64,000 nt of DNA from Octopus vulgaris (taxonomy: Eukaryota). The position numbers and the translations under genes were made by a program. Of the stretch, positions 2,484 to 25,557 are shown in pieces. Numbering within the stretch: position 1 is the stretch's first letter; each line of letters starts with the position of its first letter. Location of the stretch: assembly GCA_951406725.2 (NCBI GenBank), contig OX597814.1:142910001-142974000 (forward strand), given 5' to 3'. Below the pieces are notes generated by a model that saw only the letters and a list, made by a program, of their open reading frames with translations, was not told where the DNA came from and did no database searches.

Positions 2484-2775
2484 TAGGCGTAGGAGTGGCT
2501 GTGTGGTAAGTAGCTTGCTTACGAACCACATGGTTCCGGGTTCAATCCCACTGCGTGGCACCTTGGGCAAGTGTCTTCTACTATAGCCTCGGGGCCGACC
2601 AAAGCCTTGTGAGTGAATTTGGTAGACGGAAACTGAAAGAAGGCCGTCGTATATATGTATATATGTATATATATATATGTGTGTGCGTGTGTGCGTGCGT
2701 GCGTATGTGTGTGTGTGTATGTATGTATGTCTGTGTGTCTGTGTTTGTCCCCCCAACATCGCTTGACAGCCAATG
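2484..2775 (+). mobile_element. SINE S1, uninterrupted copy with an empty target site
   Basis: GGCGTAGGAGTGGCTGTGTGGTAAGTAGCTTGCTTACGAACCACATGGTTCCGGGTTCAATCCC carries Pol III A/B-box-like motifs, followed by the core. Confidence 0.85.
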
Positions 2776-3062
2776 CCTTCGCTAAGCAGAATAATGTCTT
2801 TACCACTTTACCCTTCTAACCTCTTCTATGCCACTAGGGGCTGGATTGGAGATAACAGACCTCCAACGAAATCATTTATTCTCAACAATATGTCTATCCT
2901 TCTGGCTGCTTTTCGATAGTTTTAAAAACAAGAGCTCCGTAAGCTAAAGGCATTTATTGAGAGCAACCAGTTATTATTGCACTTTCTTCAAACACTTCCT
3001 TCATATATTTATATACATACATAGGCGCAGGAGTGGCTGTGTGGTAAGTAGCTTGCTTACCA

Positions 3063-5240
3063 GACAGACGTGTTGTTTTTTGCTCCTGCAAATGTCACGT
3101 GTTTGAACGTGAAATGTTGAACTTTTGACTCGGTGACAGGTAAGACGTTCTGTATTTTTAGAAGCATAGTGAGGTTTATTGCTTGCTTAATGTTATTTAG
3201 CAGTTAACGTTATCTAGCATTAATATTTTTTTGCGGGTAATAGACTTCACTTTACTTCAGATATATTTCTCTGCCTGTTGTCGTGTCTAAGGTCTCACTC
3301 TTTAGTGAGAATTGTGCTTTTTGAGGAGGCGTAGCCCCTCCGCAAAAATTAATTTGTTTGCTTGTGTTTTACTACTTCGCAAGAAAATTATAAAAATAAG
3401 CCACTATTGGATTACCTTTCGGACCCATTTTTGTGGAGGTTGTGTTGCAGTTGCGGCGTTCCAGGTTCAACCCAGGCCGGGAGTACCGCAAGGCCAGAAT
3501 ATTTTTGCTGTGGTTTTTCTGTTTATTAACTTTCTTTTGAACTTCATTTAACCCCCCCCTTTTGTTTTTTTTTCTTTATTGCGACTTTCCTCCCTTCTGT
3601 TGTACTTTCTCCTTTTTGTTTTTTCAAAAATCTATCAAATTTTATTTAGACTTTTGAACTTTTTTCTTCCTGCTTTTGAGTTTAATTTGAATATATTTTT
3701 AAAAAAACATGGCAATGAAAAATAACAAAATTTTGGAGTGGGAAATCATACCACCCAAAAAGTGGTTAAAAGACCGTGAAGATAGGACGGTGGTGTTGAG
3801 AACCTACTCCAAGGCACTTGACACCATCGCCCTATTCGAAAAGACGGCAATTGAGGAGGAGTTGGAAGAGTATTTGCCAACAATTAAATTCATTTCCAGG
3901 GGTGTCAAATATGCAACGGTGTGGTTGCTATTTGACACCCCTGAAGAGGCTTGCATATTTGCTAGCAAACCCTTGGAGGGTAAGGAAATCTTATTCCTGC
4001 CCACGTACAAAAAAAGAAATTGATGAAAGCTTGGATCTGCGGACTGCCACCCGACATAGAACCCGAGTGGATAGAGGAGACTATCCGCCGGGGTCTGGGT
4101 GACAGCGAAACTAAGCTCCTCAATGTAAAAGTTCTTCCTGCGGCTGCTTGGGTTGGGTCGAAAGCAATTTTGACTCTGTGGACACAATCAGCCAATCTGG
4201 TTCTTCCAGATTTTTTGAAAATGGCCGGGTGCAGGTACCCGGTGATGCTTGAGGGTCGCCCCCCTAAGTGTCATCGGTGCTTGGAGTCCGGCCACATAAA
4301 GAAGAACTGTCCTCGGGAACAAAATAGGATCCCGGAACAGTTAAGTAAAACCCCTCTAGAAGAGGGAACGATAACGGCAGAGGACTCCTCAAACAGAGGC
4401 CGAAAGAGGAAGGTGAGCAACAATGGGTGCTCACCAAAGGATAATAGGGATGAGGAGAGGAAGGCGAATCTTCCAGCCACGGAGTAGACGCACCCTCCCT
4501 CAGTTGAAAAGGGAAAAAAAAGAAAAAGAGGAAGAAAAACGGGACATTACCGGCTGTCAGTGTAGCACCGGAATGTCGCGGAACTACGTCGGTTGGGGTT
4601 GTGCCACCGACAAGAGAAGGAATACCGTTGGCGGAAACTGTGCCGCCAACGAAAGAACTAAATGTGTTGGTCCTCTTCTATAGAGGAGGAGAAATTGAAA
4701 AAGTGATGGAAGAGCACTACAAGGGAGCACCTTTAGCCTTCACACAGGACCCCGAATGGCCTCCGCAGGTAGCTGTGGAGGCCGTGGCGTTCGACGTGAC
4801 GCTAGGGCTAAAGGAGCTCAACGAAGATTATAACTTGGTCCCGGGCGACGCGAACTCGGAACTTGACTACGTTCTGAGGGAGGCGTGGTTGATGGTGGAG
4901 GGCGCGGGCACAAGCTATTTCGAGGACGATATGTATTATTAGTAATGGACTTAAGTCCAAAAATTGAAAAATTGTAAGAGGATTAATACCTCGTTTTGTA
5001 TTAATAATGGACTGCTAAGCCCAAAAATTGGGAAAAATTGTAAGAGGTTTTATACCTCGTATTGTGTTTATCTTTTTAAAAAGAACAATGTTTTAGAGAA
5101 GCAAAAGTCGGCGGGCGCTTTCTGTCTTCTCCCATCCTTATCATCTTTCTTTCATTATCATTCACTTCATTAATGTCCTCGTCCAGCCCGCAAAGCTAAC
5201 TTAATCTGTGTACTGCCTTTATGGCAAATGTTTTGAAATA
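3063..5240 (+). mobile_element. ORF1-only (HAL1-like) Tx1-clade non-autonomous retroelement, family F
   Basis: Complete between TSDs; 5' motif ACGTGTTGTTTTTTGCTCCTG; 3' hairpin TGCC-TTTAT-GGCA then AATAAA; no RT or APE coding sequence. Confidence 0.85.
3709..4942 (+). pseudogene. Frameshifted ORF1/gag-like protein
   Basis: ORFs 3709-4023, 4020-4487 and 4601-4942; EGRPPKCHRCLESGHIKKNC is a CX2CX4HX4C knuckle; RGVKYATV and LPTY motifs shared with other ORF1s here. Confidence 0.85.
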
Positions 5241-5624
5241 AAGTAGCTTGCTTACCAACCATATGGTTTCGGGTTCATTCCCACTGCGTGACACCTTGGG
5301 CATGTGTCTTCTACTATAGCGTCGGGCAGACCAAAGCCTTGTGAGTGGATTTGGTAGACGGAAACTGAACTAAACCCGTCGAACATATGTATATGTATGT
5401 GTGTGTATATATTTGTGTATCTGTGTTTGTACACCCACCAGCATCGCTTGATAACCGATGTTGGTGTGTTTACATCCCCGTAAATGTTTTGTACATTTTC
5501 GTCATAGAAAATACACCTTTTGTGACATTTGTAACGAAATTACTTTCTTATATCAGAGGAATAAGGCGTTTCAATAGAACATCTTTATCCCCGGGAATTA
5601 CCGGGTATACCAGCTAATATATAC

Positions 5625-5995
5625 CTATATATGTTATATGTACATACATACACATATATATATATATACATATATATATATACATAGATATATATACATA
5701 GATATATACCTATACATATATATATATATACATATACATATATATATACATAGATATATACCTATACATATATATATATACATATATATACATATATGTA
5801 TACATATATATACATATATACATATATATGTATACATATATATATATATGTACACATACATATATGTGTATATATATATATATATACACACATACATATA
5901 TTTATATATCATCATCATCGTTTAACGTCCGCTTTCCTATTATATATATACACATACATATATGTATGTATGTATGTATGTATGTATATGTATAT
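5625..5995. repeat. Complex (TA)/(CATA)/(TATG) microsatellite
   Basis: Directly visible. Confidence 0.9.
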
Positions 5996-6952
5996 GAGTG
6001 CTTATAAGAGAAATATAAAAGCTACAAAAGCACAAAATACATTTACAACATTTCCCTAAAGTTAGGGAAACAACTAGTACATAATTTATTAAAAACGAAT
6101 GGATGCATGTTACTGTCAGTTAGGTAAAATAATCGTTTAAAGTTCCATGCATATATGAATTTAATTGGTAGAAAAAACAACAGCGAAATCTTCATTAAAT
6201 TATACACTACTGTCCTGAAAAAACGAAGGACATGTTACAGTGTTGAGGTAATTGTATCTAAAAAGACTGGATGATCTCTGCTAGAATGTTATTTATCATG
6301 GACCTTCTTGGCCTTAAAAAGCATAATTTTGTAGGCAATGAGTGAAAATGTTTTATTGTTTAATTTGGAAAGCTGGAATAGTTTAAATACTTTTTTTTTT
6401 GGAAAGCTGGAATAGTTCAAAGTTTATAAATATACTTAGATAAGAAACATAATTCGAACATCTCCGTTCCCTACCATAGAACGGTCCGGGAATCGAACTC
6501 ACTACCTCATGATTGTGAGTTCGACGTTCTAGCTACTGAGCCATGCACCTTCACAGTTTTATACTCTTGAGCAAGACACTTTATTTCACGTTGCTTTAGT
6601 TCATTCAGCTGCTGGTATGCATGGGCGACTGCTGGTTTTCCATAAACAAACTTTCCCGGATTTGTGCCTCGGTGGTGAAATTTCTCGGTGCAAACTGATG
6701 GTCATTCATTTACGATAAAACACGGAGAACGGCTTGAATATAGACACATAAGTAAATTTGTTTTTCGTTTTTTCTATGTCATCCTTTGGTGAAACTTTAA
6801 ACTTAATTTTCGCCATAAAAATGGATGTTTGCAGAAAAAAGATCCGATGGAAGCCATTGAACCTAAATCTCTGTGTGGACGTTCACTTAGAAATGAGGAA
6901 AACAATTAAAACGGATGTTAGCGCTAGATTTAAGCATGCATTATAAATACAT

Positions 6953-7280
6953 GAAGGAGCGTGGCTTAGTGGTTAGGGTGCTCGGCTCATGATCACAAGG
7001 TCGTGAGTTCAATTATCGACCGCGCGTTGTGTCCTTGAGCAAAACATTTTATTTCACGTTACTCCAGTTCATTCAGCTGGCAAAAATGAGTAGCACCTGT
7101 ATTTTAAGGGGCCAGTCATGTTACATTCTGTATCACGCTGAATCTCCCCGAGAACTAACTACGTTAAGGGTACATGTATCCCTGGAGTGCTCAGCTACTT
7201 GCACATTTATTTCACGAACAGGCTGTTCCGTTGATCGGATCAACTGGAACCCTCGTCGTCGTAACCGATGGAGTGTCAGT
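6953..7280 (+). mobile_element. tRNA-derived SINE, family S3
   Basis: GTGGCTTAGTGGTTAGGG...GTGAGTTCAATT head and TTGTGTCCTTGAGCAAAACA core; related pieces at 6470-6710, 11400-11600 and 62780-62915. Confidence 0.8.
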
Positions 7281-7539
7281 TATAAATACATATACCAATA
7301 CGAGCCATTGAGTCGCGTCTACTTGGTAAGTAGATCAGCTAGAAATAGGAGCTAAATCTCCCCCAAGTCACTCTATTTTCTTAAAAAAAGAAAGGATACA
7401 CTGGAAACAATGGGCGTTTAAGACTACGTGCAAGATGGATTGGTGGTTATTACTCGATGGCAGACACTTGAATGACTATCCTTCACTAAGGAGGTTAAAA
7501 TCCTCTCTAGTGGAAGTACAAGTTTTCAGTTTTTGGAGG

Positions 7540-7900
7540 AAGGGATTAAGTCGATTACATCTACCCCAGTGCGTAACTGGTATTAATTTTATTGATCCCG
7601 AAACGATGAAAGGCAAAGTCAACCTCGGCGGAATCTGAACTCAGAACGTAAAGACAGACGAAATACCTATTTCTTTACTACCTACAAGGGGCTAAACACA
7701 GAGAGAACAAACAAGGAAGACAAACGGATTAAATCGATTACATCGACCCCAGTGCGTAACTGATACTCATTCAATCGACTCCGAAAGGATGAAAGGCAAA
7801 GTCGACCTCGGTGGAATTTGAACTTAGAACGTAGCGGCAGACGAAATACCGCTAAGCATCTCGCCCGCCGTGCTAACGTTTCTGCCAGCTCGCCGCCTAA
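7540..7900 (-). mobile_element. SINE family S2, tandem/nested copies with a Tx1-type tail
   Basis: Reverse complement of the 9501-9900 family; same internal junction AAAGAAATA|GGTATTTCGTC. Confidence 0.8.
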
Positions 7901-8270
7901 CTAAGGAGGCTAAAATAAAATCGAGATATGCTTGGAGTTGTCACTGTGTCTCTGGAATGACTGAGAGAATTTAGTAACTTTAGGATGTTTGTTGTATTAG
8001 TGCCTGTAGATGTTTCAGGGTGATTCTTCATGTATTGGCAGGAACTGTGATGTTGGAGTTTGCTGTAGCGGCAAACTGTGACCCTTGTATGTGCAGGTGA
8101 TCTTTCATTTCAAAGACACTTTTTCATTGTTTTGACCACCTACGATGGCGCGAGGTTTGTTGCTTTGTGAACTTTGTAGTTTATTGTGATTTGTTATAGA
8201 GATATGAGAACCAGACATGGTTAGTATAATCCAATGATGAATACAATACAATCTTTGTACACCAACATCC

Positions 8271-8689
8271 GGATCTTTTCGGTTTGAACGGCAGTTTTTT
8301 CTAGCGGTGTCATGAAATTGTCACACATAATTATGACCCTAGTATCGATCTATTACATTTCAATCTGTTTTAAGGTTAGGGTTAGGGGTGGGGGGAAGGG
8401 TATCTTGTTTTCTTCACAAATGTAAACAAACCCAATCTGTTTCTTAAACGAGGGACATATTCATACGGCACAGAATGTTTTTTTTTTTTACCTCAATGGA
8501 CGTATCTGATTTGTTGAAATTGCAGAAATTGAAGAAAAAACAACAAATATCTTACAAACTATAGAATTTTCTCAATAAAGCCAAGAGAAAAAGATGTTTT
8601 ATAAACACATTCTACCAGTATACGAAGTTTAAATTTTTTTAGTTACCTAGAAATTATGTTAAAAACTGCCGTTCAAACCGAAAAGATCC
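8271..8689. mobile_element. MITE with perfect 29-bp TIRs
   Basis: GGATCTTTTCGGTTTGAACGGCAGTTTTT at 8271-8299 and its reverse complement at 8661-8689; no clear TSD. Confidence 0.85.
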
Positions 8690-9500
8690 AATCATTCTCT
8701 TAGTGTAGTATACAAAGTACACTAAGAGGATGCTGATGTTAGTGTTTTGTTCGGCATTTTGCTTCTTTACTATGTTCCCTACGTGTTCTATTGATTTATG
8801 ATGTTGTTTTATCATCCTAAGTATGTTTAAGTCTAGACTTGTTTTGTTTCTTATGTCTTCCATATATGCTATAAATGTTGTAAATGCGTCATATGCATCT
8901 CCAAATAATATCTGTTCCTTGCGTGTGTAATGTGCTTATGCTGTTGTTTGGTTCCTGATCAGCTTTGATTGTACAAATCCACGATCAAAGACCTTCTCAT
9001 CAATTTTAGACAGCGCGTCAAAGACATTATCCGATGTGTTCTATCTTTTTTAAGTCGCATGCTATAAGCCGAGTAAGATCTGGCTACTATTTCTAGCATA
9101 TCGAACAACTATGCAAAGATCTGCTCGTTCAGATTGTGGTATATACATGTCGTTGAGTATTATAGTCGCTGGCGTTGCTGGTAAAAATGTTGTAATTTCA
9201 AGGTGATTGTTAAGTTCAAATAGCAGTGCAGCAGTGTCTCGGGGCTGGTTGGATGAAAAATATTGTTTTTCTATGGAAGCTGCATCTACTGGAAGTGGCA
9301 GCTAAATATCTGAAATCATATTTAAGAAAAAAAAAAGTCACATTAGTTAATTTAGTCGTGGTTGCACTTCACCTGAATAATAAAAGCGGGAGATCATTAT
9401 TGGAATACCTCTGATGATATGTCAGTTCGCTTAGGACTGACCTGGAGCTAAACAACAACACCAGCAATTACCTTACAGCCATTAATATATATCGCTTTTC

Positions 9501-10095
9501 CAAGGCGGCGAGCTGGCCGAATCGTTAGTACACCGGGCGAAATGCTTATCGGTATTTCGTCTGCCGCTACTTTCTGAGTTCAAATTCCGCCGAGGTCGAC
9601 TTTGCCTTTCATCCTTTTGGGGTCGATTAAATAGGTACCAGTTATGCACTGGGGTCGATATAATCGACTTTATCCGTTTGTCTGTCTTTGTTTGTCCCCT
9701 CTGTGTTTAGCCCCTTGTGGGTAGTAAAGAAATAGGTATTTCGTCTGCCGCTACGTTCTGAATTCAAATTCCGCCGAGGTTGACTTTGCCTTTCATCCTT
9801 TCGGGATTGATTAAATAAGTACCACTGAGGTCGATATAATCGACTTAATCCGTTTGTTTGTCCTTGTTTAGCCCCTTGTGGGTAGTAAAGAAATAAGAAT
9901 GTCAGCACGCAGAGCAAAATGTTGAGCAGCATTTCATCGGTCTACATGCTCTGAGTTCAAATTCCGCCGAGGTCGACTTTACCTTTCATCCTTTCGAAGT
10001 CGAACAAAATAAGTACCAGTTGCACACAAAGGGAGATGATGTAATCGACTAGCCCCTCTCCCAAAACTGTTGGCCTTGTGCCAAAATTTAAAATC
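9501..10095 (+). mobile_element. SINE family S2, three tandem/nested units
   Basis: AAGGCGGCGAGCTGGC head; repeated GAGTTCAAATTCCGCCGAGGTCGACTTTGCCTTTCATCC core; tails GCCCCTTGTGGGTAGTAAAGAAATA end near 9734 and 9895. Confidence 0.85.
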
Positions 10096-10395
10096 AGCAA
10101 ATTGCTTTTTCTTATTAACTCATTTAGTTAGCAAATATGATCGATTTGATAATATAAAGTCAGCCAAAGAATTGCACACATGCACAAACACACATATACA
10201 TGCATGAATCGATGCATATGTTTGTTTTTCAAATTTGCTTATTTATACATGCACGAATATGTACTGTATGTATATACATGTATGCTGTATGTGTGTAATG
10301 TATGTGGAAAGAATTGAAGTTTTGTAATAAATTTTACACAGAATACTGTGTGTATACATGTGTATACATGTAATATATATATGGGTGTATACATG

Positions 10396-10433
<38 letters not shown>

Positions 10434-12268
10434 TTTATTGTATTGAATTAAATTAGAGTCTTCTCATAGTTCTCGAGTATTCATTGAGAAGCTTTCTACT
10501 ACTTTTGTGGTAGAAAGATGTCAAAAAAAATCTGAAAAAATACTTTTTTTTTCTCCTACTGTGTATCGTTTATGTCTTGCCATACAAGATCGATATCTAC
10601 TTCTGTCTGCTTATCAATTTAGAGCAAGAATTTCTATATTTACAAAATATTTTTAACAAAATATGTTTATTTCTATCGTAGTAATTTTTTATTTTTTGTT
10701 AAATAAATAACACTTTTGGAAACGACCGATTTTACTGAATTCTTTGCTGTTGTTTCGTTCTTAGTTAACCATGATCAGACTGAGGATGAGAGGTTTTCTA
10801 TCCATAACCAGCTCATCTGTCTTTGTTTTTTTTTTCTTTCACTTAAGATAATTTAATCCTGTCTAGCAATACATTATATGATAATTGTGGCCTTCCCGTT
10901 TTTAAGGTGGTAGAATGTAATTTAAGGGATGTTTGTCTACAATTTCGTATATAGCGTATCTCGGCTTGAAAATGAAAAATAATATGTTTATGCAACATGA
11001 AGACGTTAGAAATTTTATTATATACAAAATGAATTTGTACAGCATATTACTCACTTAGTCTTCTGAGATTATGTTACTGGTAGATGTGCTTTAACAGCAA
11101 TACTGTATTGTACTAGTTTAATTCGTTTTCATTTACTATACTCCATTGTTTTAAGTTAGTCTCTGTTGTTGACACGTTATATATTTTCTTTTAACACATA
11201 CTCGAAATATTTCTTATATTCAATTTGTTGTTGGAAGGCATATAAGTTTTTAAATATATTTTACATAGAACATGTTTATTCGAAATTACTGCTGTCATTG
11301 GTTTACAAACTAAACTGTATGAGAATATCGTATATTTTGTGGCATGATATATTCGGAAGTGCACAATCTCCCAGTTTGTGGTTTAATCTCCCAGATTGTA
11401 GTTTCGTTTCCTGGACCGGGCTACGCGTTATGTTCTTGAGAAAAACACTTCATTTCACGTTACTGCAGTCCACCCAGCTGGCAAAAATGTGTAACGCTGC
11501 GATGGACCGGTGTCCAGTCCAGCTGGAGAACACATACACCAGTAAAACCGGGAAACCGGGCCCATGAGCCTGGCCAGGCTTTAAAAGGGCGCAGTTATTA
11601 TTTATTTTTTTTTAGTTCAAAACACTATTGTATATAACTGTTCTCTCCAGCAAAGCTATCTTTTTATTTTATATACCATATTTACTGTTGTATAAATTGC
11701 ACCATTAATTTTGTGCTAAATCTTCGTTAAAATCTTTTTCCCTTCATATTTTTGTTTTGACCCGTGTATAAGTGGCATCAAGATTTTCAGCTAAAATCAA
11801 GTATTACATAGTGCGCCTTATACACGAATAAATAGGGTATATATTTATACTACACGTCGTATTCCACCCTAGACAATCTTTTTGATTATATATTTTACTT
11901 GCTTCAGTCATTACACTACGGCCATGGTGGAGCACCATTTGAAGGGTTTAGTCGAACAAATCGCCCCCGGTACTTTTTCTTTATAATCTGTTACTTATTC
12001 TATCGATATCCTTTGTCGAACCGCTAAGTTGTGGGGGATACAGAATAAAAATAATACAGTGGTTGTCATGTGACGACAAACGCGTAAAAATACGCGCGCA
12101 CACACACACACACACACACATATATATCTTTGTACAACGGGCTTTTTTCAGTTTCCGTCTATCAAATTCACTCCAAGCTTTGATCGTCCCGGGGCTATTG
12201 CAGATGAGATTTGTCCAAGTAGCCACACAGTGAGACTGAACTCAGAACCATGTGGTTGAATAGCAAGC

Positions 12269-14516
12269 ATTTATTTCTTTTAAATTGCCATAAAGGCATT
12301 ACATAGAGGGGGACACTACAACACATGTGGGGACATATCTTTATATATAAAAGTCAAGTTGTGTGTCTGTCTCCTACGATTTAGATTCCTAACTACTCCC
12401 ACATTTTGCGGTGCAGTGTAACCAAAAGCGGGTATCTTATAGTCGTGATTTATATCGAGCCCTTCTGGGTATTAGCGCGCGTCTACGATGAGTCTACGAT
12501 TTTAAAAATAATTTACCATCATTTTTTTTCCATTTTAATGCATTTTTTCTCTATTATATAAGGGAAGTAATTCTCTAAAAATGTCTACGATGAGTCAACG
12601 ATTTAAAAAAAAAATTACCATCATTTTTTTCCATTTTTAGTGCATTTTCTTGCTATTTTTTGGGATATAACTCTCTAAAAATGCTTATATAGTTATTTCC
12701 CTTACAAATCCGAGCAACGCCGGGCGATACTGCTAGTAACAAAATAAAAATATGATGCTATGAATGACATATGAAAAACATTAAAATTAAAATATTAAAA
12801 TAATGATACATGAATGATAACTTGAGAAATGAGAATATGAAAAGTGTGTTACTCACCCCACACTGAGTAACACCACTCGCCACCTCTGAGTCCTGAGTCC
12901 TCTTTAGTCTTTGATCTAGTCTTTCGTTTACCGTTTTCCTCATCACTGAGTGACAACACTCTCTCCTCCATGTACACGTAAACTTTTTCACCTGTTGAGG
13001 GGTTTTGTAAATTTTGTGTCTGTTCTTTCTTCTTTTTTTTCCTGTAGGAAAAGGGGGTGGGTGAGTTTGGTGTCTGTATGGAGAGGGTGGGTCTGAGTGG
13101 TCTTGGGTGAGATGGAGTTGGTCTGGGGTCCCACATCACACTGACTGTTCTTCCTCTTCTTTCGTTTTTTCTTTTATTCTCTGTCATTCATCTATCCTTC
13201 CATCTATCTGTACTTCTTCCTTTTTCTTCTTCGTCTCCAGCACCGCTTCTTCTGTCGTTTTCCTCTGTGGAGGGCAGTGAGCTCTAATGTAGCCTTTTTG
13301 GCAACATTTAAAGCATCGCGGAACTCTGCCCTCTGCCCATACTCTTAATACTATTTCTCTCAACGTCACCGTCTCTGCCAAATTTTCCTGTTGCTTCGCC
13401 TCCGCTTGTATGATGATTTCCAATGTTTTTCCTTTATATCCTTCTTCCTCCGTCTCTGTGGTTTGGAGGACAGCCACCTCCTCATTACCAACGAGGACGG
13501 CTGCCGCAACCCAAGCCACTTCTATATCGGGTGGAATTCCTTCTACCCTCACCATAGAAGTCTTTCTTCCAAGGTACGTGTGTAGAAGTACTACTTCCTC
13601 CGTTCTTACTGTTGTACTCGCCAGCCTCTTTGCCTCCTCCACTGACCTAAACTGGACAACCACCGTCCCATATCCATTTCCTTTCGCTATATATGTCACT
13701 TCCTTCGAAAGCCCCTTCAATGCGTTTTCTACTTTTTCCATCTCCATCCGCTCCACTTTCCTACTCTCCATTGAGTACACCTTGTAGGTAATGATCTTCT
13801 TTTCCATATTTTCCATGACCCTTTTCGGGGATAATAACTTTACGTCACCGCCCACCTTCTGTGTCATCTTACACAGCTCCATCAGTCCAGCTATGTGAGG
13901 GAAAGAAGCAATCCCACTTGAGATAGAAGTGGCTTGGGTGACGGCATCTGTCCTTGTTTGAAGTGAGGAGAAAGTGGCTGTCCTTCAAGCCACAGAAACG
14001 GAAGAAGGAGGGTGTTTTCACCGCCACACTCGCCAGTCTCCTCGCCTCCTCTACTGTCTTAAATTGGACGACCATTGTCCCATATCTCCGTCCTTTAGTT
14101 ATGTATATTATTTCCTTTGACCGCTCCCTTAGCGCCTTTTCCGTTTCAGCTTCCACCTGCTCAGACTTTTTCCTTTTAACGAGAACACCTTATAGGTGAT
14201 CGTTTTTCTCGCCATCCGCTCCATAATTTCTTTGGTGGACGACAATCTCAACGTCACCTGCCACCTTCTGTACCATCTTCTCATACTACTTCAGACCAGC
14301 CAAGTCCAACTCCCTTCGCTTCATCTACATGGCCTCAGCAAAACTCCTTGTCTTCTCTAACACTCCGCCTATCTTTATAACCGCCCTTACCAGCTCCTCC
14401 TCTGCTGAAGACAACTCAGACTCGCTAAAGTCTGAGTACATCATCTCTAGCCTCAAAGCAACAAAAAACAAGCACAAACGACAAACCAAATGCACTCTGT
14501 GTGACGCATGAGCGGG
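12269..14516 (-). mobile_element. ORF1-only element family D, rearranged/composite
   Basis: 3' tail at 12269-12337; ORF 13184-13882 with EGRVPRCFKC knuckle remnant; a second 5' ORF1 portion at 14013-14440. Confidence 0.8.
12338..12736 (+). mobile_element. Non-autonomous Helitron-like element
   Basis: 5' TC start, 3' GC-rich hairpin plus CTAG, inserted between A and T with no TSD; the empty site GGACATA|TAACAA is visible in the paralogue at about 14590. Confidence 0.85.
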
Positions 14517-14526
14517 AGCAAGCTTC

Positions 14527-15985
14527 TTTATTTCTTTTAAATTGCCATAAAGACATTACACAGAGGGGGACACTACAACACATGTGGGGACATATAACAA
14601 TTAAAAATTTAAAAATAAAATTTGATATAATGAATGACACATAGAAATGAACATGAAAACAAATTAAAATATGATAATATGAATGATATCTGAAAATGAT
14701 ATCATGAAGAGTGTGCTACTCACCCCACACTGAGTAACATCACTCGCCGCCTCTGGGTCCTAAGTCCTTTTACTCCTTCAGTCCAATCCTTTTTCCCTAT
14801 TCTCTATCGCTTAGTGACATCATTCTCTCGGTCATGCATTCGTAACCTTTTTCACTGGGGGGAGGGTCTTCTAAATTTTTATAGTGTCTGTTCTTTCTTT
14901 TTCTTCTTTTTTTTCTTGTGGGGAAATGGGGTGGGTGGGTTTGGTGTCTGTATGGGGAGGGTGGGTCTGAGTGGTTTTTGGTGGGATGGAGTTGGACTGG
15001 GGTACCACATCATACTCAGTGCTTTTTCTTTTTTCTCTTTCTCCTTCAGTAACTTTCCATTCTTCCTCCTTTTCCTCCTTTCCGTCGTCTATCTTTTCTT
15101 CCTCTCTTTTCTCTTCCATCTCCACAACTCTATCCTCAGCCATTGTCCTCTGTAGAGGACAGTGTGTTCTAATGTGGCCCTTTTGGCCACATTGAAAACA
15201 ACAAGGTACTCTGCCCTCTGCCTACACCCTCAGCACGATTTGCCCCAACGTCATCGTCTCTGCCAAGTTCTCCAGTTGTCCCTCCTCCGCCTGGATAATT
15301 ATTTCAAGTGTCCTTCCTTTCCACCCTCCTTCTGTTTCTGTGGCTTGGAGGACAGCTACCTTCTCCTTGCTTCCAAAAAGGTGAGCTGCCGCTATCCAAG
15401 CCACTTCTATATCCGGTGGAATTTCTTCTACTCTCACCTTGGAACTCTTTCTTCCAAGGTATGTGGGCAGAAGTACTACTTCCTCTGTTTTCACTACCAC
15501 ACTCACCAGCCTCCTCGCCTCCTCTACTGTCCTAAATTGGACGACCATTGTCCCATATCTTCTTCCTTTGGTTATGTACGTTATCTTCTTTGTATGTTCC
15601 CCTCAGCGCCTTTTCCACTTCTGCTTCCACCTGTTCTGCCTTTTTTCCTTCCAACAAGTACACCTTATAGGTGATCGTTTTCTTCTCCATCCTTTCCATA
15701 ATTCCTTTGGAGAGCGAAATCTTCACGTTGCCGCCCACCTTCTGAGCCATCTTCTCGTACTCCTTCAGACCAGCCAAGTCCAGCTCCCTTCGCTTCATCT
15801 CCGAGGCTTCAGCAAAACTCCTTGTCTTCAACACTTCGTCCATCTTTATAACCGCCCTTACCAGCTCTTCCACCTCCTCCGACAACTCAGACCCGTCAAG
15901 GTCTGAGTACATCTTCTAAGCAAGACAAAAACTACGTCCGACTCTTACAAAATCCAAACAGCAAATAACCGGACGCATGCACGGA
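14527..15985 (-). mobile_element. ORF1-only element family D, frameshifted
   Basis: ORFs 15532-15912, 15222-15548 and 14871-15143; knuckle remnant at 15160-15200; tail at 14527-14600. Confidence 0.85.
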
Positions 15986-17191
15986 AGCAACCTTCTTACC
16001 ACGCAGCTACACCTGTAGAAGACAGCTTCCTTCAAATTCGAACTTGGAATGTTTAAGTTCGAAGCACAAAACCGTCGTTACTATATTTGGTAACACTGAA
16101 GTGAGATACGAATGATTAACAACATTGTATATATTAATGTTGACCAGAGTTAATTTTGCCTATTTTTCTTGAGCTCTGTTGTAAAGTCTTCATTATTTAT
16201 GGTAGTTTTAGATGGGCGTTGACAAGCAAAAAGACAAGTTTCATTTCGTGCCTAGAAGCCACATGGAACATTCTGGACCCTTGAATTTTAAACACTCTGG
16301 TGTTTAACTCTCCAAAGGAATACTTTCTATTGCTGCTGGAGAACTTGTTTTTAACATCAATTCTATTGTATATTGCACTAGCTTTAGTTTGTTTCATTTA
16401 CTATATTCCATTGTTTTAATTTAGTCTCTTTATCGTTGACACGTTATATATTTTCTTTTATTACATCCTCGAAATATTTCCTATATTTAATTTGTTGTTG
16501 GAAGGCATATAAATTTTTTAATATATTTTACACAGAACATGTGGTTTATTCGAAATTACTGTTGTCATTGGTTTGCAAACTAAACTGTATGAGAATATAT
16601 ATTTTGTGGCATAATATATTTGGAAGAGCACATCTCCCAGTTTGTAGTTTCATTTTATTGACTATCAGTTGTGACACGTAATCCTTGAGAACCTTCTGCA
16701 GATATTAAATATATTTTCTGTAGTTCAAAACACTATTGTATATAACTGTTCTCTCCAATAAAGCCATCCTTTTATTTTATATACCATATTTACTGTTGTA
16801 TAAATTGCACCATTAATTTAGTGTTAAATCTTCGTTAAAAATCATTTTCCTTTCATAGTTTTTGTTTTGACCCGTGGCATCAAGATTTTCAGCTAAAATC
16901 AAGTATGAGATAGTGCGCCTTATACACGAATAAATAAGGTGTATATTTACATTACACGTCGTATCCCACTTTAGACAATCTCTTTAATTATATCTTTTAT
17001 CTTTCGCTTGTTTCAGTCATTATAATACGGCCATGCTGGAGCACCATTTTGAAGGGTTTAGTCCAACAAATCGACCCCAGTACTTTTTCTTTATAGTCTG
17101 TTAATTATTCTATCGATATCTTTTGCCGAACCGTCAATGTTGCGGGGGATGCAAAATAAAAAAAAGTGGTTATCATGTGACGAAAAACCTG

Positions 17192-17226
<35 letters not shown>

Positions 17227-17404
17227 ACAACGGGCATTATTCTGTTTCCGTGTATTAAATTTTTGTCCAGCAGGCTTCTTTCAGTCACCGTCTATCAAAT
17301 TCACTCAAGGCTTTAATCGTCCTGGGTCTATTGCAGATGACATTTGTCCAAGTAGCCACAGAGTAGGACTGAACTCAGAACCATGTGATTGAATAGCAAA
17401 CTTC

Positions 17405-19044
17405 TTTATTTCACGATATTTGGCTATGAAAGCCGTACACAGAGGGGACAGCACAAGGTGGGGACAAAAAAAGAAAACGAATAGAAAGGATGAATTAAAT
17501 ATAATGAAAAATGAAATGAAGCCGTTCGGCTCCCACCTCCGAGTGACTTCATTGAACCTGTTAATACAAGGTTTTTCTTTAAACCTAGTTTATAACACAA
17601 TTATTAGCGACAGCTAATTATCAAATACTCCGAAGGATGTTTACATTGTGCTTCTTTAAAATATCAGAAACACTTATTTGTTTAGCATTGAGCTAGTGTC
17701 CACTTTCTTGATCCAGCACTCATAGTCATGGTTTTCTTCAAAGTCCTTTAATCTTGATATATATTCTGGGTCTGCCACTACACAGAAGGTACTCGAGTAT
17801 CCCTTTCACGCCTGATACATCCTCTTTTATAACACTGTCCCACGAGTCTATTTTGTTATACAATTCTTCATTGTCTCCACTGTACGTTATAACATAGTTT
17901 TCCAAGGGCGAGGGTGGAGAAATTTGGGGCTCCCGTGTGTTTGTGCTTGTGTTTATGTCCTGTAGGGTATGGAGGGGGCTGGTGTCTGTAGGGAGTGGTT
18001 GGGGTAGAGTGGGTATGGGTGGGAGCTTGGTGGGTGTGGGTCATCCTTTACAGCATGTGCCTTTTTCTCTTTCTTCTCTTTTCCCAGCTGTTTCCCATTC
18101 ATTATCCATCTCCTCTTCTTCGACGCTAAACTGGTCTTTATTTGTATTGCCGCCTCACTCCTTTTCCTCAACATACACGGGTAGTGGAGCACCAGCTACT
18201 TTCTCATTCTCTTGTCTCTCTTTAGCCTTCAGGACAATCCGCTCTATTGTGGTCTTTTAGGCCACATTTATAGCACCGCGGAATCCTCCCTTCCACTCTG
18301 AATTTCAGTGTTGCGTCTCCGACCGTGATTGTCTCTACCATATTTTCGATATCTTCCACGGCAACCTGTGCTACCATATCGAGGCTTTGTCCTTGCCAGT
18401 TCCTGTGGAGTGTTCTGGTGGCGTGGAGGACCACCATCTTCTCCTCCATGCCTAGCACTATGGCAGCTACCTGCCAGACTACATCCACTTCTGGGGGTAT
18501 GTCTTCTACCCTAACCCTGGAAGCACGTCTCCCAAGGTATACGGTTAGATGCACCACTTCTTTGGTTTTTAACGGTGTAACTGAGTGCAGCCTGGCAGTA
18601 GCTACCTCCCGAAACCGCACCAACACTGTCCCAAATTTTCTTCCTCTGGCTGCCCCCGAATATGTTCTGTAATTATGGCTTTCTCATTTTTCTATTCGTT
18701 TACCTCCCCATTAATCGTTTCCTTGAATTTACTTATATCCTCCAGCCTTACGTCTTCGCTTCTTTCATTCGTAACCTCTGCATAATTTTTCGTCTCCATC
18801 ACTTCATCTATCCTCTTCAAACACTCCACCATTTCTTCCTCAGTCGACACAAAGTCTGAAGGAGAATAGTTTACAATGTCTGAAGAAGAAGAATTAAAAT
18901 TCCTCACACGACGTCCCTCCATTAAACAAGAGAGAAAACGTCGCACCGCTAAGACAGCCAAAAAAAACAAACAAAAAAAACAAAAACAAAAACACGTGTG
19001 TTACTCACAAAACCAACAATTCAACTAGCAAACGTTGTACAGGA
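17405..19044 (-). mobile_element. ORF1-only element family E, degenerate
   Basis: ORF 18222-18626 with EGRIPRCYKCGLKDHNRADC; tail hairpin GGCT-TTCAT-AGCC then AATAAA. Confidence 0.85.
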
Positions 19045-19054
19045 ATCAAGCTTC

Positions 19055-21010
19055 TTTATTTCATAAATATTTGCTATACTAGCATTACAAAGAGGGGACA
19101 AACAAGGACAGACAAACGTAAAATGGTGAAGAAGCTGCTACAATTTAAAAGTTCTTTGTTTCTTTTTAATGATAAATTACGATTAAAATTTACGATTAAA
19201 ATTACAGTAAAAATTTAAAAGTTCGATGGTATCACATTGTCACAGGCAATTTTTCTCCCAAAGGAAAGGCACCCGACTACCAGGGTAGAACCTCTGCTTT
19301 TTTTCCGGGGCTCCACTTACTTGGTGCCAATCACTCCCAGCTTTCTTGCCACAAACTTCCATCTTTTCTCGAATCCTTCTCGTGACAGGTACCTCTTATC
19401 AACTGAGGTGGTAATTAAAAAAGTTAACCAACACCTGGCCAGATACAAAGGTAACCGTCACTATTCTTTTCACACGCATCTTCCATACTCTTTCTTTCAG
19501 TATGGCTACTACGCAGAAAAAGCAAGCCTTCCTCTCCCTGTTGAGGGAAGGAGGCGCACAATCTCGATGATAGACTTAGCCGATAGCTGTACTCTTCCCA
19601 TCGATGACAACAGTTGTTCTGCGAAAGCTATTAGTCCCGTTAATTCCGGACACTTCACAAATGCGTGCAAGACGGTTTCCCTGTCCTGCCCGCATCTCGG
19701 ACATGTCGGCGAGACGGCACTTCTGTGCCTTGACAGTTTATCGCGAACAGGTAACGCCACACGGAAGCATTGCCAAGCCAAGGATTTCTGGTAATTATCT
19801 AGATAACCTGGCCCGAAAGCTCTCCTGAACAGGTTGATCAACTGATTTTAATCGTAGCTCAGGGTCTCCACAAGGCGTCTTCGGATATAATCTCTACTAA
19901 CCCGCTATAAAAACCGCGGTGGAACTCCTACTGCCGGCATTGCCCGCCCGAGAGAGCAACTGAAGTGCCTGACGGCACTCCAATGGCCAGTCCCCCAGCT
20001 TAGGTCTCTGCTTGATCCATATACCAATGCGCGTTAAGGACGTTAACTGCGGAAGATAGAACTGGACATGCGATGACCACACCTGCTCTCCATCCAAGTA
20101 AAGCCAGAGGTGCCTCAACCTTAGCGCGAATTTTCGCATCTTCAGCCAAGGCATCCCTATCCCACCCTTTAGTGATTTCTGGCAACAGATAGAGCGCTTC
20201 ACAAGTGGCTTACCTCCCTTCCACAAAAAGCGGAAAAGGATTCTCTCCAACTTGTTCAGTCACAAATCGGGGCAAGGCACCACGGTCAGACAGTAGGTGA
20301 TTACTGATGCTATAAACATCTGCACCACCTCCGCCCTCCCTAGCAAGGATATCGCCCGCCCAGACCAGGTCTGGGTTAGAGCAGTCACCTTGCTGGTCAC
20401 CTCACTCCAATTTTTCTCTATCTGGAGAAACCACTTCTATATCAGGTGGGATTGCTTCTACCCTTACCTTGGAAGTCTTTCTTCCAAGGTGTGAGGGCAG
20501 ATGAATTACTTCCTCTGTTTTTACTGCCACACTCGCCAGCCTCCTCGCCTCCTCTACTGTCCTAAATTGGACGACTATTGTCCTATATCTCCTTCCTTTA
20601 GTTATGTATATTATTTCTTTCGAATTCTCCCTAAGCACCTTTTCCGTTTCAGCTTCCACCTTTTAACGAGAACATCTTATAGGTGATCGTTTTTCTTTCC
20701 ATCCGCTCCATAATTCCTTTGGGGGGCGACAACCTCACGTCCCCTCCCACCTTCTGTACCATCTTATACTCCTTCAGACCAGCCAAGTCCAACTCCCTTC
20801 ACTTCATCTCCGTGGCCTCAGCAAAACTCCTTGTCTTCTCCAATACTCTGTCCATCTTTATGACCGCTCTTACCAGCTCGTCCTCTGCTGAAGACAGCTC
20901 CGACCCGCTAAAGTCTGAGTGCATTGTGTCTACCTTCAAAGCAGCACAAAAAACTTCCGACTTGCACAAAAACGACAAACTAAATGCACTCTGGGTGACG
21001 CATGCGCAGA
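19055..21010 (-). mobile_element. Internally deleted Tx1 LINE (D-type ORF1 5' part fused to ORF2 C-terminus)
   Basis: 20426-20920 is ORF1-like; 19330-20425 is homologous to ORF2 at 26283-27430 (LRLRHLWLYLDGE; CPRCG..ETVLHAFVKC). Confidence 0.85.
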
Positions 21011-21589
21011 AGCAAGCTTCTTACCACGTAGCGAAACCTTTAAAAGACAGCTTCCTTCAAATTCGAACTTGGAATGTTTAAGTTCGAAACTGAAAACCGT
21101 CGTTACTATATTTGGTAACACTGAAGTGAGATACTTATGACTAATGATTAACAACATTGTATATATTATTATTGACCAGAGTGAATTTTGCCTATTTTAC
21201 TTGAACTCTGTTGTAACGTCTGTTGCCATTTTTTGAAGTGAATCATTTTTGATGGACATTGACAAGCAAGACAAGTTTCATTTCGTGACTAGAAGCCTCA
21301 TGGAACATTCTGGACCTTTGAGTTATAAAAACTCTAGTGTTTAGCTCTCCCAAGGAATACTTTTTATTGCTGCAGGAGCCCTTGTGTCTTTAGTTCTATA
21401 TTTAATAAAAAATGTTCATCAACTTTCTCTCAAAGATATTACAGCTATTGTAACCGGAGACTGCCCTAAATGTATGGGACATTCAGCTCTCAGCTTTTTA
21501 CAATTTTAGTATTTCTTGCTTCGCACATATACAACAAATTGTACATTATGTATATCAAAGAGGTTTAGTATTATTACTAAATATTGGTT

Positions 21590-25344: not shown

Positions 25345-25508
25345 CCAGGCGCATGTATGACTGTGTGGTCAAGAAGCTTGCTTTGCAATCTTGGTTTCGG
25401 GTTCAGTCCCATTGCGTGACACCTTGGGCAAGGGTCTTCTATTATAGTCCCACGCTGACCAAACTTTTCTGAGGGAATTGGTTTGACGGAAACTGTGTGA
25501 AAGTCCAT

Positions 25509-25510
<2 letters not shown>
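25345..25510 (+). mobile_element. SINE S1, partial
   Basis: TGTGTGGTCAAGAAGCTTGCT...ACCTTGGGCAAG; target site empty. Confidence 0.7.

Positions 25511-25557
<47 letters not shown>

Follow-up and report, generated by a model that had tools for sequence, protein, structure and literature searches.

Background

Long interspersed nuclear elements (LINEs) of the Tx1 clade carry a CCHC zinc knuckle in their first open reading frame (ORF1). Here we describe a window of 64,000 nucleotides of the Octopus vulgaris genome (assembly GCA_951406725.2, contig OX597814.1, positions 142,910,001 to 142,974,000 of the forward strand), in which a LINE of the L1/Tx1 group and passengers that encode ORF1 only have very probably inserted at one base in the head of an abundant short interspersed nuclear element (SINE), S1, by the mechanism proposed below. 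According to the sections of PMC4494074 consulted, Tx1 families are regarded as sequence-specific when the target occurs in more than 20% of flanks, and their targets are Tx1D, U2, U5, 5S, satellites, microsatellites, Mariner, long terminal repeat (LTR) and Harbinger sequences. For instance, Tx1 of Xenopus inserts in Tx1D, the crocodilian Tx1-Mar in Mariner-N4_AMi, Tx1-8_Crp and Tx1-4_AMi in LTR elements, and Tx1-9_AMi in Harbinger. A SINE is absent from the targets given in those sections, and a SINE-targeting LINE was not found in the literature searched; Repbase or Dfam may already record such a target. L1-Tx1 families have been counted in Octopus vulgaris, the words "target" and "nested" being absent from the text consulted (PMC13282606), and are mentioned without targets in the consulted part of a further study (PMC8967140).

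With the Tx1 elements that target transposons, the octopus system shares a LINE with an L1/Tx1-group endonuclease and reverse transcriptase (RT) landing in a mobile element, non-autonomous dependants that use the same target, and tandem insertions. It differs in that the target is one base of a transfer RNA (tRNA)-type SINE head, hit with an estimated fidelity of 92-97%, and in that the dependants code for ORF1 and are not SINEs; furthermore, an element-borne leader and the possible tracking of SINE subfamilies are not mentioned in the same sections of PMC4494074.

The R1 elements of Drosophila offer a parallel in the form of the junctions. As far as the excerpts of PMC2718515 go, R1 makes a 14-bp duplication, builds arrays at its 5' copy and carries target bases on its transcripts. 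The ancestral type resembles our elements in this 14-bp duplication, in microhomology at truncated 5' ends and in arrays arising via the 5' duplication, and the melanogaster type in transcripts whose target bases anneal at the 5' junction. R1, however, belongs to another clade and targets 28S rDNA; the bases on its transcripts correspond to sequence upstream of the nick and lead to a deletion, whereas those of our elements are located downstream, inside the duplication, which they overwrite; membership of the R1 clade is ruled out by the dispersed SINE target and by human L1 ORF2p as the nearest solved protein. Mammalian HAL1 (half-L1) elements are likewise non-autonomous LINE derivatives encoding ORF1p only, as described in the consulted part of PMC5753468. 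Our ORF1-only families work like HAL1 but are not HAL1: their ORF1 is of the CCHC-knuckle type with no Pfam match to the mammalian L1 ORF1 family, their families are numerous and deeply diverged, have a shared terminal hairpin where HAL1 has a long poly(A), and insert at a specific target. Finally, Dada shares sequence-specific insertion in the region of a Pol III promoter's A box (at it or close by), but, in the passages of PMC8869645 consulted, it is a DNA transposon that enters real tRNA genes inside the A box. The LINE habit of targeting transposons is thus already known, and it is the SINE target class and the leader-overwrite junctions that appear new within the literature searched.

Results

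Targeting of the SINE head

The junction of element end and target, GAAATAAAGWAGCTTGCT, occurs in the window at 5235-5252 (+) and at 14517-14534, 17395-17412 and 19045-19062 (-). Allowing three mismatches, the window holds five matches against 0.13 expected by chance, four of them at sites named beforehand. Across the genome (2.8 Gb in 227 contigs), the exact junction was found 1,395 times and its control not once, which bears out the proposal of the first-pass annotation that insertion into the SINE head is site-specific. The exact head was matched 129,250 times, so that roughly 1% of heads are occupied, as a lower bound. The first 30 junction loci all run into the target and 29 of them into the SINE body, with varied element ends upstream.

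When 3' ends were picked by element sequence only, the target came next in 30/30 F-type ends (the first 30 of 399) and 30/30 D/E-type ends (the first 30 of 34), some of these targets being decayed. A looser end pattern returned 960 ends, followed by AG in 883, AH in 28 and B in 49. Of 58 non-AG ends judged by eye (30 of the 49 B-type ends among them), 27 still had a target-like flank and 14 matched by chance; the remaining 17 were real ends off target, with several starting TGTA or TGTG. We estimate on-target fidelity at 92% by the strict count and at about 97% by extrapolation, assuming that the AG class is on target. These counts (30/30, 30/30 and 883/960) stand beside the 20% of flanks used for Tx1 families, and they speak against random flanks, one of two ways in which the annotation had expected targeting to fail. 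The other, that the motif belongs to the elements' own termini, proved half right: at the 3' junction the target derives from the locus, varies by SINE subfamily and predates the elements, whereas the 5' copy of full-length elements is largely element-borne.

Two observations on these loci stand apart. Six near-identical junction loci on two contigs (L193-L198; C31, C39) have private variants in common and are likely segmental copies or assembly duplicates; and about 2,480 bases upstream of the junction at L062, a complete S1 SINE lies within an F-type element, which for its part occupies the head of another S1 copy.

Layout of the window

The features of the S1 system in the window are as follows.

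2486..2690, + strand: empty S1 SINE with head, target and body uninterrupted
3024..3046, + strand: locus A, head of the split SINE, its A-box-like TGGCTGTGTGG lying at 3034-3044 (A box by eye from the consensus)
3047..3062, + strand: locus A, 5' target copy of 16 bases, target flap plus element leader
3063..5241, + strand: locus A, ORF1-only element of family F2, 2.18 kb, 0.8% from the family majority
5242..5385, + strand: locus A, 3' copy of the target, then the SINE body, B-box-like GGGTTCATTCCC lying at 5271-5282
12100..12270, - strand: locus B, SINE body of an old subfamily, start of target decayed
12271..14513, - strand: locus B, element D, ORF1-only, a mosaic made up of two E-like parts
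14514..14527, - strand: locus B, target copy separating E from D
14528..15982, - strand: locus B, ORF1-only element E
15983..16016, - strand: locus B, 5' target copy and decayed SINE head
17270..17405, - strand: locus C, SINE body, duplicate of the locus B body (89% identical)
17406..19041, - strand: locus C, ORF1-only element D2, a separate family
19042..19055, - strand: locus C, target copy separating the deleted LINE from D2
19056..21007, - strand: locus C, chimera of an E-like 5' part (577 bases) joined to the last 1.37 kb of an autonomous LINE
21008..21041, - strand: locus C, 5' target copy and decayed SINE head
25347..25549, + strand: empty older S1 SINE of AGAAG type

All junctions that the annotation had named in three split S1 copies are present, the one at 12262 with a decayed target start; target cores lie at 3047, 15986 and 21011, and the empty sites placed near 2505 and 25370 were located at 2509 and 25372. 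Locus B (12.1-16.0 kb) and locus C (17.3-21.0 kb) each hold an array of two elements and represent one SINE locus that was duplicated, as had been suggested, with flanks about 90% identical. No DNA match was found between D and D2, their 3'-most cargoes. The cargo does differ among loci (F2, D, E, D2), and what had been described as a deleted LINE turned out to be a chimera, whose 3' part is 82% identical to the intact element L063 and covers ORF2 residues 771-1150. At both loci the 5' copy (GCTTCC or GCTTCT) is unlike the SINE's own 3' copy (GCTATTC), and is therefore not a plain duplication.

At locus A the insertion point lies 2 bases 3' of the A-box-like motif. The F2 element has a fragmented ORF1 (about 3709-4942, with CCHC knuckle) and ends in a hairpin, TGCC-N5-GGCA, and terminal GAAATAA. 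Contigs from four sequencing runs at this locus were swamped by SINE copies, and element-spanning joins were indistinguishable from other empty SINEs.

The tRNA origin of the head is read by eye from A and B boxes, TGGCTGTGTGG and GGGTTCARTCCC, which stand at tRNA spacing in the empty copy at 2486. Neither Rfam (E up to 10) nor ARAGORN reported a tRNA in the head, a relaxed, intron-allowing ARAGORN run gave only noise, and weak alignments to several genomic tRNAs (z up to 5.9) pointed to no clear parent. S1 resembles octopus OR2 and may be the same element; this resemblance, together with a 65% match to a protein of Argonauta, suggests an octopus genome. The part of PMC4758252 consulted names OR2 as a CORE SINE of octopus.

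Autonomous LINE and ORF1-only families

One junction locus, L063, holds an intact element of 5.44 kb with a 15-base match at both ends. Its ORF1 spans 488 codons from stop to stop and has a CCHC knuckle (zf-CCHC on protein P0002 at the Pfam cut-off), and its ORF2 is open over 1,150 codons, with Exo_endo_phos, RVT_1 and zf-RVT on protein P0001; L064 has an ORF2 equally long, and L100 is 99.4% identical to L063. The best solved relative of P0001 is human L1 ORF2p (229 bits, against about 70 for R2). By phmmer it scores 331 bits against Tetraodon BAC82605.1, which we take to be a Tx1-group element, and 234-316 bits, at 27-35% identity, against three fish proteins named TX1. Endonuclease, RT and zf-RVT fit the L1/Tx1 group; the narrower assignment to Tx1 itself, which the annotation had inferred, rather than to the L1 group in general, is likely on these scores, as distinct from a rooted tree.

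Most of the cargo is ORF1-only and requires a separate autonomous partner. Within 2.4 kb of 40 junctions, 22 loci matched ORF1 only, 12 matched ORF2 and six neither. All 65 F1 copies match ORF1 (29% to the CCHC-type P0002), 14 of them keeping an open frame of at least 400 codons, and none of the 65 holds a match to ORF2. These ORF1-only families are numerous, at roughly 2 kb each, and share the last ~35 bases: a 4-bp stem with a 5-base loop, then GAAATAA. The stems change in pairs (TGCC/GGCA, CGCC/GGCG, TGTC/GACA, GGCT/AGCC, TGCT/AGCA), and 26 of 40 distinct ends passed the hairpin score against a shuffled mean of 4.3, a comparison that yields no probability value as the ends are related. We infer that the hairpin is the handle of the RT and that an L063-type ORF2 moves the ORF1-only families.

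At the other end, an GCGCATGCG-like palindrome or ACTTCCGG directly follows the leader in D (14513), E (15982), the chimera (21007) and five further loci (L077, L086, L096, L087, L065). These motifs resemble NRF-1 and ETS sites, and such 5' ends are possibly internal Pol II promoters.

The upstream target copy

Truncated copies carry true duplications of 14-15 bp, and in two of them (L048 and L170) private variants are shared across 14 bases. Full-length elements differ, as most of their 5' copy comes from a leader that the element itself brings and is mostly not a duplication. For instance, 56 of 64 F2 5' junctions have a 1-base deletion at base 9, the others having A (4), T (2) or G (2). Pairs of 5' and 3' copies were compared for 42 F2 elements, namely all eight non-deletion copies and part of the 56 deletion copies; 10 of 52 5' junctions were excluded because the retrieved stretch held no 3' end. 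The deletion is on the 5' side in 34 pairs and in 0/33 of their SINE-side 3' copies, the remaining pair preceding a second F2. Furthermore, where target and leader agree over bases 10-15, the 5' and 3' copies are equal in 4/7 pairs; where they disagree, in 0/34.

F1 behaves similarly. Its 5' copies read TAAC in 65/65, and the target has T at base 12 in 14 (four loci were excluded before the counts: L017, of 106 bases and internally deleted, and L159, L270 and L299, whose 3' end was not found). L295 has a private change at base 6 in both copies, yet these differ at base 12, and L271, in a target that matches, has one at base 10 in both. The "clean 17-bp" target-site duplication annotated at locus A is real as an identity, 3046-3062 and 5241-5257 agreeing over 17 bases, with the first base shared by chance as the terminal A of the element; as a typical duplication it does not hold, since the 5' copy of full-length elements is largely leader, and G at position 9 is found in only two F2 copies, of which locus A is one. 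Nine of the 65 F1 copies have an extra T at the join, and its explanation as an inherited variant is unsupported, those nine falling on separate parts of the F1 tree. L362 and L366 show two stacked leaders about 1,480 bases upstream of the junction, of TAACC type and then of the older GCTTCC type, which suggests that elements capture new leaders when one SINE subfamily gives way to another.

A second lineage

From 26100 to 51680 (-), a decayed LINE and some 13 ORF1-only units, which belong to three or more families, follow one another head to tail in an array of 25 kb. The ORF2 of the LINE is 59-64% identical to P0001, and many ORF1-only units have open frames near 500 codons. Its units are joined directly after GGGTAATAAA, and with no S1 target at its 12 listed junctions this lineage was rejected as part of the S1-targeting system. 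Its 3' motif has 23,491 genome matches; in the loci read (L369-L398), these are tails of a second SINE of roughly 270 bases. Among 28 loci with the motif, 10 continue into a site in the head of that second SINE itself, and others into sites resembling RGTA, where duplications of some 15 bases are visible by eye. It is thus a related lineage with a looser target and a SINE partner of its own.

Discussion

In the mechanism we propose, the LINE endonuclease likely nicks the SINE head, and its RT would copy any RNA with the shared 3' hairpin end. The bottom strand would be nicked at GGTA^AG(T/A)AGC and the top strand cut 14-15 bases downstream, leaving a flap that could pair with the new cDNA and prime the second strand. 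For truncated copies, this pairing would use chance microhomology, so that the true 14-15-bp duplication is kept. Full-length RNAs, however, would start within the upstream target copy, and their cDNA would end in a family-specific leader of 8-10 bases, able to pair with the flap; in case of a mismatch between the two, the flap would be trimmed to about base 8-11 and the leader sequence would remain. As the upstream copy is still a target, arrays could grow.

Several points weigh against this account. The nick positions, the trimming and the start of the RNA are all read from junctions, and it is the shared end and target that suggest mobilisation of the ORF1-only families by the autonomous family (A1). 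The truncated copies that could be paired number only a handful, and at base 9 four of the eight non-deletion F2 5' copies fit neither leader nor target. Targeting is not absolute, given the 17 element ends at non-SINE sites described above, and about half of 40 long loci had no head recognisable by the search patterns used within 9.4 kb upstream. In addition, the order of insertion inside arrays is unreadable from their structure.

Insertion as proposed would also be compatible with a different division of labour, which we regard as possible but doubtful: a captured leader at the RNA's 5' end and read-through sequence at its 3' end, by RNA-DNA pairing and not through the endonuclease alone, would mainly select the SINE subfamily and favour heads already occupied. 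Young families avoid the old AGAAG subfamily, with 0/107 for F1 and F2 together against 23 of the first 100 of 97,008 exact heads, while the older D/E family (7.8% from its majority) has non-TAG targets, mostly AGAAG, in 23/30. F1, with its TAAC leader, lies in TA targets in 51/65 (two of these being another element's leader), F2, with a TTAC-type leader, in 16/41 (Fisher p 7e-5), and 22 of the 100 background heads are TAACC; this background is a count by eye on one contig, which weakens the comparison. F1 against F2 is moreover confounded by age (median divergence 0.6% and 1.5%), so that timing can account for part of the difference, F2 being older than F1 and the TA subfamily being young, and the two families may rely on different partner enzymes. 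(A mean of 11% for F2 was discarded in favour of the median, as an alignment artefact from internally deleted copies.)

Re-hitting of occupied sites points the same way. Among 54 on-target X ends, read by eye with a pattern that misses F2 leaders, a plain SINE body comes next in 15, a further X in 17, a leader of F1 type in 11, the autonomous leader in four and other leaders in seven. Thus 22 of the 37 that do not precede X adjoin another element's leader; with about 1% of heads occupied, such sites are re-hit far above their share. Open chromatin at young or transcribed copies would explain this equally well, and RNA pairing, enzyme change over time and open chromatin are each possible causes of both preferences. 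The idea that X and F1 moved as a co-transposed dimer was not upheld, the nine F1 copies with an upstream X being scattered on a poorly resolved tree (9/62 inner branches well supported). At three sites of the same genome (G000 C1:223694753-223706775, C5:78746228-78754200 and C10:101175563-101186095), five to seven X elements occupy a single site at 2-kb spacing.

It is improbable that the uniform 5' copies arose by gene conversion within families after insertion, true duplications being 15-17 bp throughout. The copies are young and numerous, and a few full-length ones, including that of the window, do have perfect 15-17-bp matches; but the switch from target to family bases is confined to bases 7-11 across dozens of unlinked loci, the target allele is kept in step with the match to the leader (4/7 against 0/34), and the extra T recurs in copies scattered over the tree.

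Slimmer still is the chance that tRNA genes are the true target and the SINE is struck only as a look-alike, as might be imagined from a site directly after an A-box-like motif and from the Dada transposons that hit tRNA genes at the A box (PMC8869645, in the passages cited above). The annotation had raised the question whether real tRNA genes are also hit, and in our small sample (63 of ~656,000 candidates scored) they are not: at up to three mismatches, 0/30 genomic tRNA genes of seven amino-acid types have the target at the equivalent place, with one 3-mismatch match elsewhere, and none of the 58 non-AG flanks is tRNA-like by eye.

Hitchhiking, in which SINE head, cargo and SINE body were copied as a composite unit with no targeting at all, might be read into the one young subfamily that holds 51/65 F1 copies and into a 5' copy uniform within families, but it is largely refuted and most unlikely, since at 26 TA loci the F1 elements diverge from their majority by 0.7% but the adjoining SINE bodies by 2.5%, SINE bodies at five TT loci are 4-37% divergent, empty copies of the young subfamily are as divergent as occupied ones (median 2.5%, n=14, or 2.9%, n=15), F1 copies in TT targets are scattered on the F1 tree, truncated inserts of 51-355 bases stand between intact head and body, and many unrelated families share the site.

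Conclusions

With targeted insertion by an L1/Tx1-group LINE and its ORF1-only passengers, the landing sites known for LINEs now include a SINE that is dispersed and evolves fast. The system provides hundreds of independent, datable insertions at one allelically variable site, where second-strand joining is readable from genome sequence and the junctions show which strand wins when target and cDNA disagree. L063, apparently intact and with a second copy 99.4% identical, is a candidate site-specific endonuclease-RT, and with so many families that are ORF1-only, one may ask why passengers retain ORF1. For the SINE, insertion parts the A and B boxes by kilobases, so that hit copies are likely silenced; with only about 1% of heads occupied, the effect on S1 as a whole is probably small. 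For the LINE, S1 may be a safe harbour, as the annotation proposed. If leader and read-through sequence do guide the choice of site, the RNA ends of this LINE swarm would be a memory of its last target, and the parasite would track the succession of SINE subfamilies, splitting the promoter of the youngest copies.

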